From positions 11,780,001-11,844,000 of the forward strand of contig OZ231126.1 of NCBI GenBank assembly GCA_965153355.1: DNA of 64,000 bases, given 5' to 3'. This document shows positions 42,036 through 56,900 of this stretch, one piece after another. A model generated the notes under the pieces. The model did no database searches. It was given only the letters and a program-made list of their open reading frames with translations, and had not been told where the DNA came from. A program made the position numbers and the translations under genes. Each line of letters begins with the position of its first letter. The stretch's first letter is position 1. Origin of the DNA: Flaccisagitta enflata. Its lineage: Eukaryota.

Positions 42036-45000
42036 ATGAACTCGCCTCAAGTTCATCGTCCTCGTCGTCGTCTTAATCTGAGTCGTCGTCCTCCGTTAAT
42101 GCGAAGTTTTTCGTCATTCTTTGTTCCTATGCTGCTGAGCAATTTCGTCTCCGGTGCCCTGATGAAGGATGCTTCCACGAAGAAGTTTGCAGTAATTGTG
42201 GATGCAGGAAGCTCGGGTATGTGACATTCATAACACACACACATACACACGCACGCACACACACACACACACACACACACACACACACACACACACACAC
42301 ACACACACACACACACACACACACACACACACACACACACACACACACACACACACACACACACACACACACACACACACACACACACACACACACACAC
42401 ACACACACACTCCGAGGAACTTATACATCTAAGAAACATGAAAACTGACACCTACACTTACTATCACAAGCAAAAAACTAAAGTGCCAAAAGTCTTGAAG
42501 ATCAATGACGTGGTACCATGGGCCTGAGAAGGTGAAACAAATATGTCATTTTCCATTTTCAAAATATCATCTTATATCAGGATCGAGAATCTACGTCTTT
42601 CAATACGACCCCAAAGACAAAGTGCCGAATTGAGAACATGTCAAAAATAAAGACGGGAAACCCTGGAACTACAAAACAGAGCCTGGAATCAGTACACTCG
42701 CAAGTTAGTGCGGAATGACATGATGGCATGATGTTGTGTGAAGACCATGCACTGGTCCTGTCAGATGATCAAAGCTGCTTCGATATCATTGCCCCTGCCC
42801 CCTGGCTCCTGAAACTGAAACTGTTTGACTGATTCAGTTTATTTCTTTTGGTAATGGAATGCACGTCCCAGAATCGTTAATCGGGATGCCCGTCCGTCCA
42901 TCTCACAATTTTTTAGTTAAAACATCAGAAATGGCAGTTGCGGTCAGCCCTGGATTTTTTTCATATTTGATTTAGTTTTCTGAGTTCCGTAATTTTCCCT
43001 CAACCACCCCAACATCCTTCATCTAAAGTCTCAACTCGTACCCCCCCCCCTCAAAACCCTCAACCCCCTCCATCACAATCCCCCATCCCACCCGTATAGA
43101 CAAGTTAGGAGACGTCGAGTCGTACGTCGACGATCTGTTGCAGCATCTGAAGGATGAAGTTCCTGAAGCATCTTTCCCGCGGTCGAGTTGGTCGTCAACT
43201 CCTTTCATGTGGTTTGCCACAGCAGGGATGCGACTTCTGAGAACTGAAGTTGCCGAAAAGCTGAACGAGAAACTCAAAAAGGTGCAATCAAAGAAAGGAT
43301 AACATTTGAATTGAAATGGAAAGACGCAGTTTACCATGAGTTGAAAGCCTTTTATTGTTACTACACTACACTATACTACACTATACTATACCGCTTCCGC
43401 TTCCGCTTCCGCTTCCGCTTCCATTTTGTAGTACAAATACTAGAAGCTATCCCATCCTCCAAAACGGAAGCGGTCAATCGCTTCCTCATCCCTACTATCA
43501 ATATCATCATTATTATTATCATCATTATTATCATAATTATCATTATTAGCATTTTGATCGTTATCATTATTATTATTATTATTATTGTTATCATTATTAT
43601 TATTATTATTATTATTATTATTATTATTATTATTATTATTATTATTATTATTATTATTATTATTATTATTATTATTATTATTATCATTATTATCATTAAT
43701 ATCATCATTATCTTTATTATTCATCTCTCTCTCTCTCTCTCTTTCATTTTTTTATTCAGGTGGTCAAAAAAAAGTTGGTCCCATTCAAGTTTCAAGACAG
43801 GTGTTAACAATTTGGGCAGAGAGAGAGAGAGAGAGAGAGAGAGAGAGAGAGAGAGAGAGAGAGAGAGAGAGAGAGAGAGAGAGAGAGAGAGAGAGACAGA
43901 GACAGAGACAGAGACAGAGAGACAGAGACAGAGACAGAGACAGAGACAGAGAAAGAGTCACATATTTGTTGTGGTGATGCAGTTGGTTGAGAACATTAAC
44001 TGGCGAGGAGGAGGGCGCTTTTGCATGGATCAGTCTCAATTACAACAATGGACTTTTCACGGAAGATGGTGTCCAAGATTACGGAGTTGTGGAAACTGGA
44101 GGAGCTTCTACACAGGTTAGACTTACACAAAACAGAATCCCTTTTCAAACTGTCATCGTCTTACACCAAGAAGCATTTACACAAATGAACCTAACACAAA
44201 GCTTTGTTTAAGGGAGCATCTACACAAGTGAATTACCGCATCTTCACGTTATAGTCTCATGCCTCATTATCCACCTTGCCCATTTCTACCCAATCCCCTC
44301 CGCTCTCCCACTCGCGCTCTTTCACGCTAATTTGCATGATATTGGCAGATGACATTCTTGGCACACGGTAGCCTCCTAAGCAACAAATTCAACGTGATTA
44401 TTGATCGGAAGCTGTACCCACTCTACACTCACTCGTTCCTTTACTTTGGCCAAGATCAAATTATCAACAGAATCCTACTCAACAATTGTTTGTGTAAAAA
44501 CGCGAAAAAGGGCGCGAAATGTCACAAGTGCATCCAGCACAACCGCTACAATCGGGTCCCAGGTTAGGAAGAGCAAGCTTCAGGGGGCATCTGATGAAAG
44601 CTGATACACACGCACGCACTCACACCCGCACACACACGCACACACACACAGTCACACTCACACAGCCACAGTCACTCAGTCACACTCACACACACACACA
44701 GTCACACACACAGTCACACACACAGTCACACACACACACACACACACACACACACACACACACACACACACACACACACACACACACACACACACACACA
44801 CACACACACACACACACACACACACACACACACACACACACACACACACACACACACACACACACACACACACATATACACATATACATGCTTTTCTCAT
44901 GACCCATTATTATCTACACAGTGAAAAGCGCATGTCTCTTGGCTGGATTCACCAAGAACCATACCGTGACCCACAAAAACTCTACTCACACAATTTCATT

Positions 45001-53900: not shown

Positions 53901-56900
53901 TCGGCCCCTTCAGGGCCGCTGCCCAAAAAGGGAGTTTTTAAACATTTTTTTAGCATTGAATTGTAATAGCAGCTTCAAAAATCCTAAAAAATCCTATAAA
54001 TATGTGGTTATGGTTAAAGTATATAAACTTTTACCTTAAAAGCAGCAAGTTTCATGAAATATTGTCCAGATTAAAGTTTGAAAATAGTAAAATACTAATT
54101 TTTTTAACATTTAAGGGCCTTGATTTGATTAAGCAGCTTCAAAAGTCCTGGGAAATCCTGGAAATGTCTAGTCATAGGTGAAGTTCAAATACTTCAACCC
54201 TGAACAATAAATAATTTGGGATTTTTTCAAGTTTGCAGCTTGAAAATGATATGAAAAATATGAAATATTGATTTTTTTTAGCTTTGACTAAAAAGATATC
54301 TGAAACTACTCGCTATTAAGGGTAAGAACATGTATACTTTTTTTGTTGGTAGACACATCCAAGATTTTTCAGGATTTTTGGAACTGTATGAACAGTATAC
54401 AGCTTAAAAATGTTAAAAACAAGCAGTATTTTTTCATTTTTTGACTTTTTTAGCTCCAATCTTAAAATATCCTTGATAACTTGTTGTTCAGAGTAAGTGT
54501 ATTTTTACTTTACCTATTACTACACATTTCCAATATTTTCCATGGTTTTTGAGGCTGAATGACCAAATTTAGGCTTTAAAATCTTAAATTAATATATTTT
54601 AACCATTTTTAAGCTTTTATCTTAAAAATATTGCAAGTAACTTGCTGTAGTAGGTTAAGGCATGTATGTTCCAACTACACCCACCCATTTCTAGAATTTT
54701 CGAGGATTTTTGAAGTTGCGTAAATAATTTTGTGCTGAAAAAATAATGAAAATACCCTTTTTTGCCTAAAAAAATTTTTTTTTTTCAAAATTTTGCTTTC
54801 AAAAAAATTTACCACCGGGTGATTAGTATTCACCAAGCATCATAGGATACTTCTGAACCACTCCCAGCATTGGGCACTCAAAGTTGTCTTTGTCTTTGTA
54901 TCGTAACGCTGTGTGGGAACAATTCATCGATGTTTCTTTAGGCGGGAATGATGTGGAAAGTTATTTTATAGAAACATTGGTGATATGGAATGATCATTTT
55001 GACCATAATCACAAACATTGGTGATATGGAATGATCAATTTCAACATAATCACAATTCAGACAAAAACAATGCAGGTCTGAGATCATTACCCACTTAATG
55101 GGCATGAAAACAAGGCCGGATACACGGCTACCCCAGTCGCGTGTAGTTGGGCAGGGACTATATTTGAGGTCACTTGATCATTTGGGCAGGAGCAGTGAGG
55201 CAAAAGACCGCAAAAGACCGCAAAAACCAAAAAAGTAAAGTGTGACGGACGGACGGACGGACGGACCGACGGACCGACGGACGGACGGACCGACGGACGG
55301 ACGGACCGACGGACGGACAAAGCAGTTGTAGAGACGCGTAGCACGCGACTAAAAAGTATGATTATACATCGATTACAGGCAAATATCCCGAGTATTCAAG
55401 CTCGCCCTACGAGCGCGACCGTCAAGTTCGAAACGCGGCCAGCACGCGGCACAAAAACGTGCTGAAAGGCGGCCCATTTCATCTGGCATTTCCGTTGGGA
55501 GATGTTTTTGACGCGACAGTTTATCAACCGGATCCGAACGAAGCGGCGCCTTCTAGAGCGGGATCCAGAGCCCATTCCGCAGGAAGAGGTGAGCTCAGTG
55601 TATTCTTGACAGTCAATGTACGAGATATCCATGGCACGTTATCATTCACAGAAAAAACAACATTCTCAATCACTGTAAATTGAAGATATTCATTGGGTTT
55701 TTCCAAGAGTCACTACACTGCGCTTTGTAAATGATGGTTTTTTTTTGGTTTTCTTTAAAGTTGTCAATAGAGAGCCCCGCGACCGACTATTCAACTTGTT
55801 TCCTCTTTCATGCCATTTAATCAGTTTTTAGATGCGTCCTCGCATCTCTATAAGAGGCTTTGTCCGTCCGTCAATCCGTCCGTCGGTCCGTCTGTCGGTC
55901 CGTCGGTCCGTCCGTGGCGTTTTTTTTCTGTTCACTTAAATTCGAGCCAGATCGAACGAGATCGAGCAAGATCTCTCTCTCTCTCTCTCTCTCTCTCTCT
56001 CTCTCTCTCTGCCTCTCTCTTGCGAACAGGAATAAAACGCAAAGCACGCATCTATAGGTCGAATTTCGGCCTTGTTATCATCCTTTTTTCCATTATTTTA
56101 TGAAAGGTGTCGGTAAAGAGCCCGACGGTCGACCATTCAAACCCTCGTCGCCTGGAAAGCGACTTGGAGGCTGCAAAGCCGGCTGTTTCCACGCATTCCC
56201 CACAGTTTCGTCATCACCTTTTGTACCTCTTTATAAGGTAAGTAACATCAGAGTATAATTGTAAATATGATTGTTCCCACTCATTCCCCACAGTTCCTCT
56301 TCGCCTTTTGTACCTCTTTATGAGGTGAGTTACCTCTTACTGGTCTGTGTGTTTATCTTCATTTTGGTCAACTGGCTTGCTAGCAAAAAAATCGGGCTGA
56401 ACACTGTCTCAATGATTAATCATTCCCAGACAAAATTCCATCACAAATTTTTGAACAAATCTCTACATTCTTCTTTTATTTCTTGTCATTGAATATTTGA
56501 ATTTAAAGTCGCGTACACGCGACTGTACAACCCGCTCTGTCTGTCTGTCGGTCGGTTGGTCCATCTTTTGGTCGGTTGGTAACACTTTGCTTTTTTGGCT
56601 TTTACGGGCGGTTTTGGAGTTACAGCTCCTGCCCAACTGCCTAGCTGGTCTATTTCATCACTGCCCCTGCCCACCCGCACGCGACTTGGGTAGCCGTGTA
56701 TCCGGCCTTGTTTTAAATACAAACCTATGACATCCATTCCTCAACTATTTCCATTCATTCAATGGAAAGGACGTGTTGAACAACAAGTACTCCGGGGGTA
56801 CAACGATGCGTCCACATTAGAGTTGGGAGAACTTATGTCGTGACTGTCGGAATCGACAGTCACACCCCATGGTGTCGGTCAATCGACACCATGGTCAAAA

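Follow-up and report, generated by a model that had tools for sequence, protein, structure and literature searches.

Degenerate copies of exon-intron junctions in the introns of CFAP96, an NTPDase gene and other genes of Flaccisagitta enflata

Two genes on the + strand of the window analysed here, a stretch of 64,000 nucleotides of Flaccisagitta enflata (contig OZ231126.1, positions 11,780,001 to 11,844,000), have introns that contain partial copies of the adjacent exon-intron boundary, referred to below as echoes. The first gene encodes an NTPDase and was identified by matches of both exons scanned to the Pfam profile GDA1_CD39. Exon 5 (43983..44115; Pfam scan and junction alignment) is the source of a donor echo, and intron 5 (44116-44348), which separates it from exon 6 (44349..44562; Pfam), holds two decayed copies of the exon end and donor at 44169..44236. 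The copy at 44169-44200 is identical to the source at 23 of 32 positions and has lost the GT; that at 44213-44236 is identical at 21 of 24 and has a GT at 44228. Among the 20 ends of this gene the exon 5 donor alone stands out, with a score of 24 against 8-17 for the others. Similar decayed arrays were seen in two of three NTPDase paralogs. An apparent seventh echo of the window, at an NTPDase acceptor at 44921, disappeared once exon 6 had been added to the gene model. The NTPDase of the window also has a premature stop within exon 2.

The second gene is CFAP96. All four exons scanned match the Pfam CFAP96-like profile, the six exons when spliced encode 328 amino acids without a stop, and only one DNA match to the gene was obtained in this genome. 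Exon 1 (coding part 50960..51120) is without an echo; its donor scored 28, a value put down to a purine-rich, low-complexity stretch (shuffle p 0.39) and discarded. Exon 2 (51545..51672; Pfam), the start of which agrees with one RNA contig (run X3), is followed at 51702..51816 by donor echoes made up of an 89-nt tandem unit, whose alignment takes in 60 exon and 27 intron nt, and an incomplete third copy. The copy at 51702-51788 is identical at 64 of 87 positions with a GT at 51762, and that at 51792-51816 at 23 of 25 with the GT lost. Downstream of exon 3 (52766..52960; Pfam profile) lies a decayed array of at least four units of the exon end and donor (52986..53242). Its copies at 52986-53030, 53172-53209, 53216-53242 and 54922-54942 score 27-34 and are singly marginal (shuffle 95th percentile 27, shuffle maximum 33); an additional copy at 53060-53103 is 81% identical to 53160-53206. 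The array is interrupted by an inserted element (53249..54913, no strand assigned) with terminal inverted repeats of ~155 nt and a 4-nt target-site repeat, and its final unit (54922..54942) has been pushed ~1.7 kb away by this insertion. Exon 4 (55379..55588; Pfam) has no echo. Exon 5 (56107..56237; Pfam) is echoed at both ends, by an acceptor copy at 55740..55794 (23 intron and 34 exon nt, 41/55 identical, AG kept), from which it is separated by a dispersed repeat, and by a copy of the exon end and donor at 56272..56336 (54 exon and 12 intron nt, 56/65 identical, GT at 56325). The exon 6 acceptor copy (56739..56783; 39 of 43 aligned letters identical, with gaps, AG lost) lies ~1.45 kb upstream of exon 6 (coding part 58222..58382), which was placed by an RNA contig piece and the joined reading frame. 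Thus 5/10 ends of CFAP96 and 1/20 of the NTPDase gene are echoed, a window total of 6/30. In the CFAP96 echoes 12-27 nt come from the intron side, the low-complexity fraction of the CFAP96 introns is only 0.20 overall, and microsatellite spacers are absent from all six window echoes.

The reality of the echoes was assessed by local alignment of 45 exon and 15 intron nt at each junction to its own intron and comparison with 200 dinucleotide shuffles. At each of the six ends named by the first-pass annotation the score was reached by 0/200 shuffles, and all six are therefore taken as real. The claim that each echo is specific to its own exon and does not belong to a dispersed repeat family also holds, since a cross-locus control gave matches in 0.14% of 2,908 other-locus pairs. 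At the strict cut used for sampling the genome, a score of 28 within 400 nt, only three of the six pass, namely the exon 2 donor, exon 5 acceptor and exon 5 donor of CFAP96. An assembly artefact or chance similarity could be suspected from the CFAP96 exon 3 and NTPDase copies, which are weak one by one, and from two loci of the genome sample (L057 and L076) at which the echoes are 100% identical to the exon and lie beside long microsatellites. Against this, most copies have identities of 74-98%, are split by transposons and are shared among paralogs, and control rates were 0.14-3%; we give this explanation next to no credence.

Frequency was estimated from 294 introns of 78 other loci of the same genome (588 junction ends), nine of 309 introns with ambiguous edges and loci L055 and L098 (recent duplicates) having been dropped. 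A copy in the own intron was found at 25/588 ends (4%, or ~6% net by a looser shuffle test with 2-4.5% false positives), 15/294 at donors and 10/294 at acceptors. No copy was found on the wrong side of the exon (0/370), and exon-middle windows gave 1/192, which supports the proposal that local tandem duplication is a genome-wide tendency and that junction copies persist on the intron side alone. Intron-interior windows had a local copy in 141/2,351 and 131/2,256 cases, ~6% against 4% at junctions, so that per sliding window echoes are not commoner than intron-interior duplications. The first-pass annotation had made its case depend on the echo rate differing from this background: per window the two are equal, whereas per event junction copies occur at about twice the background. 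The event counts, which also leave out L043 and the donor echo of L039 (shared ancestry) as well as intron-only families below 30 nt, gave 22 junction-anchored families out of 50, a 2.2-fold excess over uniform placement (bootstrap 1.3-3.1). Junction copies are recognisable for longer because one partner, the exon, is conserved, and this detection advantage was simulated as 1.33-1.44. Of the 2.2-fold excess, ~1.4-fold is detection advantage and the remainder lies in microsatellite-rich loci, mainly those of myosins.

The remainder might instead reflect junctions that are true hotspots, with exon ends preferentially copied or refreshed through repair or template switching that halts at the splice signal, or through recurrent conversion from the exon. 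In favour of such junction-directed mutation, the 22 families exceed the 13.3 +/- 3.0 expected at a detection weight of 1.5, although at weight 2 the excess shrinks to 22 vs 16.0 +/- 3.2. Echoes also cluster by locus (14 same-locus pairs vs 3.2, p 0.0006), and the clustering was reproduced on separately predicted exons (6/70 vs 10/566, p 0.005). These came from an ab initio exon finder that recovered 85/156 known ends in cross-validation; its echo rates (myosin 10/274, other 9/745), both diluted by false and antisense exons, entered the clustering test only, and kinase and AMP-binding loci likewise figure only among the predicted exons. A residual excess, which tells against the neutral reading, is left in the myosins, where 16/24 families are junction-anchored and 6.0, 7.9 and 9.4 would be expected at weights 1, 1.5 and 2. 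Several myosin paralogs echo the same junction, and of eight such shared-junction echoes five are closest to their own exon, two are ties and one is marginally closer to a paralog exon. L047 and L056 have a common breakpoint, yet are not sisters in a quick myosin tree. Against a hotspot, the 149 introns of non-myosin genes have no excess (6/26 families junction-anchored vs 4.3-7.1 expected) and the myosin II paralogs are not independent of one another. Moreover, such repeats are known to go along with relaxed selection in large groups of paralogs (PMC2812944), and tracking of the own exon is also produced by ordinary array turnover (PMC3087553). We regard junction-directed mutation or renewal as unlikely. 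A version in which microsatellites next to exons prime template switches into the exon end, the same junction is recopied across paralogs and the copies are refreshed from the exon seems to us equally doubtful.

A link to microsatellites is seen in the echo rate, which was 1/140, 5/192 and 17/244 by tercile of the low-complexity content measured in echo-free introns. Part of the residual excess lies in the microsatellite-associated families, of which 14/26 are junction-anchored where weight 1.4 predicts a share of 0.32 (p 0.015, rising to 0.10 at weight 2). Intron-only duplications were flat with microsatellite content (0.18, 0.20 and 0.21 per kb) and no denser in echo loci than elsewhere (0.326 vs 0.323 per kb). 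Myosin loci with and without echoes have equal low-complexity content (0.306 vs 0.299, p 0.88), and the family and microsatellite effects are therefore confounded. Echo and other loci did not differ in GC3 or dispersed-repeat content (p 0.43 and 0.22). For the 8/23 echoes with a periodic flank, microhomology between microsatellite and exon came to 16 nt vs 5.5 expected (p 0.003), a signal owed to three of the eight cases, four having none. Multi-unit head-to-tail arrays are present at L054, L057, L076 and L092, and some single copies have been displaced by insertions.

The sampled copies (26 echoes) span 18-97 exon nt and 2-275 nt on the intron side. Their identity to the exon ranges over 74-100%, a spread which marks the duplication process as ongoing. 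Mismatches by codon position number 28/32/68, a third-position share of 0.53 (p 0.075 against 0.45); the 107 changed codons comprise 53 synonymous and 53 non-synonymous changes and one stop, and gaps occur in 5/26 echoes. This pattern fits a neutral copy combined with synonymous drift of the exon. Among ten echoes with non-microsatellite spacers, however, four are discordant, the exon side being 85-98% identical where only 5-11 intron letters match (at L071, 98% over 97 nt against 6 nt). Plain tandem duplication followed by decay does not explain this discordance, for which junctional filler or later conversion is needed, and it counts in favour of the hotspot.

Retention of splice sites raises the question of whether selection maintains echoes as functional alternative or decoy sites, coupled for example to nonsense-mediated decay. 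GT/AG is intact in 22/23 echoes, several echo sites score level with the real ones (CFAP96 exon 3, 11.3 vs 10.3) and the single stop in the changed codons would also suit such a role. Neutral decay, however, predicts 20.2 of 23, non-synonymous changes are as many as synonymous ones, and 4/10 window copies with a readable core have lost GT or AG. Splicing at the echo would leave the product open and in frame in 1/23 cases. An in-frame cassette exon was possible in 0/23, and no copy was a whole exon with two splice sites and an open frame of the kind seen in tandem exon duplication or mutually exclusive exons. The suggestion that echoes supply latent alternative splice sites thus has little or no support, GT/AG being retained at a near-neutral level. 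Four RNA runs were aligned to 51425-58500, a region that leaves the NTPDase echo outside the coverage. The raw-read run had about zero depth on the CFAP96 exons, its signal being dispersed repeats, and exon-matching RNA amounted to three contig pieces from one metatranscriptome. One contig (depth 4.4) joins at both authentic edges of CFAP96 exon 5. Of 69 joints 15 were listed, none of them at an echo site, with a coverage too low to exclude use. In the human F7 gene, pseudo-sites of this kind remain silent (PMC1557585). Selection for splicing is in our judgement very improbable.

The notion that echoes build introns from exon ends finds little support in their extent, 4,346 bp of ~227,600 intron bp or ~2%, compared with 22% for low-complexity DNA and 14% for dispersed repeats; echoes are not a major source of intron DNA. 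The copies also include intron-side letters, which implies that the introns came first. Among the accepted ways of gaining an intron is tandem duplication (review PMC3443670; Gao and Lynch 2009, as cited in PMC3087553), and mirages, discussed below, have been put forward as raw material for it (PMC3087553). Echoes could be remnants of introns gained when exon sequence was duplicated in tandem (the Rogers model). The raw mutation, a short intragenic tandem duplication, is the same. In that model, however, the duplication makes the intron, at whose far (3') end the upstream exon end comes to lie, whereas here an existing junction is copied, the opposite geometry. In long introns the upstream exon end was found at the far end for 2/69 donors and the downstream exon start at the near end for 0/69 acceptors. 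With the 12-27 nt of intron-side sequence, and with an exon 5 donor that keeps its position in each of the three NTPDase paralogs examined, this leaves the Rogers model with only a very slight chance of being correct.

The phenomenon itself is already known, as the 'mirage' or F7-IVS7 class of junction-spanning repeats. Amphioxus mirages, in Adh3, the globins BflGb6 and BflGb9, troponin C and PGBD5 (PMC3087553, PMC3902484), are described as tandem duplications of 5' and 3' edges with units of 10-160 bp and 81-100% identity (PMC3087553), with GT/AG in many but not all copies, splicing reported as unaffected and array turnover (PMC3087553, PMC3902484). The echoes resemble them as direct, intron-adjacent, head-to-tail copies with exon and intron letters at both donors and acceptors. 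Unlike the mirages, known from single genes, they were counted over 588 ends in a different animal genome of 794 Mb in 9 contigs; many are single copies with a microsatellite spacer, and the window copies are older and broken by transposons. In the 37-bp VNTR of human F7 IVS7 the first unit spans the exon-intron border and creates pseudo-donors further downstream, use falls to the most upstream donor and splicing is normal; kindred minisatellites occur in interferon-inducible 6-16 and CBS (PMC1557585). The F7 units are identical and include only 4 exon nt, whereas here 18-97 exon nt are copied, the copies are diverged and acceptors are echoed too. Internal tandem repeats at exon-intron boundaries of human segmental-duplication genes show enrichment in sizeable sets of recent paralogs (PMC2812944). 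The enrichment among myosin II paralogs is similar; CFAP96, a single genome match with half its ends echoed, is unlike them. Within the literature searched, to which subscription papers mostly do not belong, the class is known from single genes only, and no genome-scale rate or background comparison was found.

We consider it probable that the echoes are mirage-type junction-spanning tandem duplications whose intron copies decay neutrally, with detection and microsatellite effects added. They would start as short local direct duplications of ~40-300 nt, common in the introns of this genome, and may arise by slippage or template switching, sometimes where an intronic microsatellite matches a few letters of the exon; arrays could then grow by unequal exchange. 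A junction-spanning copy would be tolerated since the exon is left whole and the splice site adjoining it remains in use, and copies within exons are presumably purged. The intron-side copy decays roughly neutrally and is disrupted by transposons and expanding microsatellites; the original is preserved in the exon, and in simulation this conserved partner would keep junction copies recognisable ~1.4 times as often as intron-intron copies. Loci with microsatellite-rich introns hold more copies, which would make genes like CFAP96 look heavily echoed. With 4-6% of junction ends echoed, thousands of intact twin splice sites would exist genome-wide, a ready test, at donors and acceptors alike, of how splicing chooses one of two identical sites. 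If the hotspot were real, the genome would hold several thousand duplicated-splice-site experiments made by nature, each requiring the exon-proximal site to beat an equally strong twin 60-400 nt away. As a practical matter, profile searches score partial exon copies as coding, and such copies can lead annotation and read mapping astray.

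The copies of exon-intron boundaries, here called echoes, lie in two plus-strand genes of the window, an 11-exon NTPDase gene (GDA1_CD39) and the 6-exon CFAP96, and they are real, genome-wide and of an already described class. The first-pass annotation had reported them at six boundaries; all six are present in place, with every one outscoring all 200 dinucleotide shuffles of the intron it lies in. Each holds both exon and intron letters of a single boundary (12-27 intron nt in CFAP96), indicating that the source was an existing junction in genomic DNA and not spliced mRNA. In the window 6/30 exon ends are echoed (CFAP96 5/10, NTPDase 1/20). 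At CFAP96 exon 3 the copies lie in a decayed array interrupted by a 1.66-kb element (53249-54913), which has terminal inverted repeats of about 155 nt, carries CAC...GTG at its ends and shows a 4-nt target repeat. This element, which contains a nested 20-nt-array element, we take to be Chapaev-like. The NTPDase exon 5 echo is old: a profile of that exon end found decayed arrays in L130 (p 0.027) and L131 (p 0.007), both paralogs of this gene; the same profile found no array in a third paralog, L129 (p 0.34), and pairwise alignment of the paralog introns gave borderline support only.

The RNA runs containing parts of the window are marine metatranscriptomes. Raw reads had a depth of about zero on CFAP96 exons; at this depth echo-site joints numbered 0 among the 15 joints listed of 69. 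One contig from the run X3 aligns to 56105-56237 and departs from the genome at both edges, which shows that it uses the authentic acceptor and donor of CFAP96 exon 5 and not the echoes. Two further contigs match CFAP96 exons 2 and 6. Use of the exon 5 echo donor would give an 87-nt extension that is in frame yet includes a stop.

The first-pass annotation also inferred a lineage-wide tendency to local tandem duplication, junction-spanning copies being tolerated on the intron side, and this tendency holds across the genome (794 Mb, 9 contigs). Profiles were made from 82 sampled stretches of 10 kb on all nine contigs, a non-random draw of five gene families (myosin, chaperonin, kinesin, MCM and tRNA-synthetase). 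Refinement gave 309 introns with canonical splice signals, of which 294, at 78 loci, were kept once 9 with ambiguous edges and the two loci that are recent duplicates had been set aside. Under a strict cut (copy score >=28, <=400 nt away) echoes were found at 15/294 donors and 10/294 acceptors, against 0.14% of 2,908 other-locus pairs, 0/370 wrong-side comparisons, 1/192 exon-middle windows and 2/138 far ends of long introns. A looser whole-intron shuffle test gave 48/576 against controls of 14/576 and 11/352, a net rate of about 6%. These counts show the tendency to be genome-wide and side-specific.

The 'mirages' described in amphioxus are minisatellite-like duplications that copy intron-exon boundaries, with both edges affected; their units are 10-160 bp and 81-100% identical, splicing is undisturbed and turnover is concerted (PMC3087553). 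Further reports add PGBD5 and troponin C as mirage genes (PMC3902484) and tie such repeats to large paralog groups (PMC2812944). In a junction-spanning minisatellite (the F7 repeat), only the most upstream of identical donors is used (PMC1557585), a known basis on which donor echoes can be tolerated. Mirages were also put forward as source material for intron gain (PMC3087553), the same idea that the first-pass annotation advanced for echoes. Here the intron-gain model failed its tests, as did a whole-exon-duplication model, an in-frame cassette exon being possible from none of the sampled echoes tested. What is new is the measured rate, 4-6% of exon ends, together with a modest event-level excess and a tie to microsatellite-rich loci.

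Comparison with background gave two answers. Per window, junction echoes are not above background, since local copies turn up in 141/2,351 and 131/2,256 windows inside introns (each array unit counted). Per event, after short hits and shared-ancestry cases had been taken out, 22/50 local duplication families are junction-anchored where uniform placement expects 9.9 +/- 2.7, a modest excess (2.2 by locus bootstrap, 1.3-3.1). Detection explains this in part: a copy with a conserved exon as its partner remains detectable longer, simulation put the advantage at 1.33-1.44-fold, and the expectation rises to 13.3 at a weight of 1.5 and 16.0 at a weight of 2, against the 22 observed. The excess is unequally spread: in myosins 16/24 families are junction-anchored (expected 6.0-9.4), and in non-myosins 6/26 (expected 4.3-7.1).

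Echoes are clustered by locus (p 0.0006), also on separately predicted exons (6/70 versus 10/566, p 0.005). Sampled loci such as L054, L056 and L076 have 3-4 echoed ends apiece, which makes CFAP96 a tail case, picked by eye. Echo-free introns of echo loci have a low-complexity share of 0.306 versus 0.147 elsewhere (p 0.002); the figures are 0.371 versus 0.129 for non-myosins (p 0.025, 4 loci), with no difference within myosins (p 0.88). Across low-complexity terciles the echo rate is 1/140, 5/192 and 17/244, and intron-only duplications are flat at 0.18-0.21 per kb. Of the echoed ends, 13/26 have a microsatellite no more than about 60 nt away, versus 132/562 others (odds ratio 3.3, p 0.004, paralogs counted as independent), and microhomology of 4-6 nt between microsatellite and exon was seen at 3/8 testable breakpoints (total 16 versus 5.5, p 0.003). 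These associations point to template switching or slippage; they are correlative, and gene family is a confounder. This account does not fit the six window echoes, none of whose spacers is microsatellite. The link to microsatellite-rich loci leaves some room for splice junctions being duplication hotspots, which we consider unlikely.

Echo-exon mismatches fall 28/32/68 by codon position, where by our own estimate about 45% would be at third positions under neutrality; changed codons comprise 53 synonymous, 53 non-synonymous and 1 stop, and 5/26 echoes have gaps. Such a pattern is expected if the copy is neutral and the exon drifts at synonymous sites. Splice cores are kept in 22/23 echoes (20.2 expected), a count that gives no indication of selection either favouring or removing them, and predicted use of the echo site leaves an open in-frame product in 1/23. 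Tolerance of acceptor echoes may be grounded in exon definition. Recognisable echo arrays make up about 2% of intron DNA (4,346 bp of 227,607 bp, a total including the two later-dropped loci).

Among echoes of homologous myosin junctions the own exon is closest in 5/8, with ties in 2/8, which implies that such echoes arose repeatedly or are still being renewed. The sample includes about 20 myosin II paralogs (L032-L061), several without head-domain introns present in others. The recent paralogs L054 and L055 have unequal acceptor-array copy number, with five and seven tandem units of a myosin acceptor and about 125 nt of exon (L054:7021-8247 and L055:6561-8089, gene-strand). Four of ten echoes with non-microsatellite spacers are 85-98% identical on the exon side and match over just 5-11 nt on the intron side, a discordance that is unexplained. 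At another sampled locus (L071:3858, gene-strand) a 97-nt exon-end copy of 98% identity has a 46-nt spacer made of two donor-like 23-nt units that differ from the sequence past the copy; plain tandem duplication does not account for this arrangement.

Joined CFAP96 exons encode 328 aa, stop-free. NTPDase exon 2 (42581-42703) has one in-frame TGA where L130 has leucine, reflecting a null allele, a young pseudogene or an assembly error. At least three similar NTPDase paralogs are present in the genome. A duplicate limited to NTPDase exon 1 and the region before it lies 41 kb upstream (293-1521 versus 41174-42490, 96% identical). Positions 1-296 match 35064-35359, inverted. A 1,202-aa open frame on the minus strand (29565-33170), flanked by 76-nt direct repeats (29467-29542 and 34050-34125, 97%), is probably a mobile element. 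Broken frames at about 25500-28950 resemble an LTR-retrotransposon integrase region, presumably BEL/Pao-like. A satellite array with a 112-nt unit (62526-64000, 96% matches) continues past the window end.
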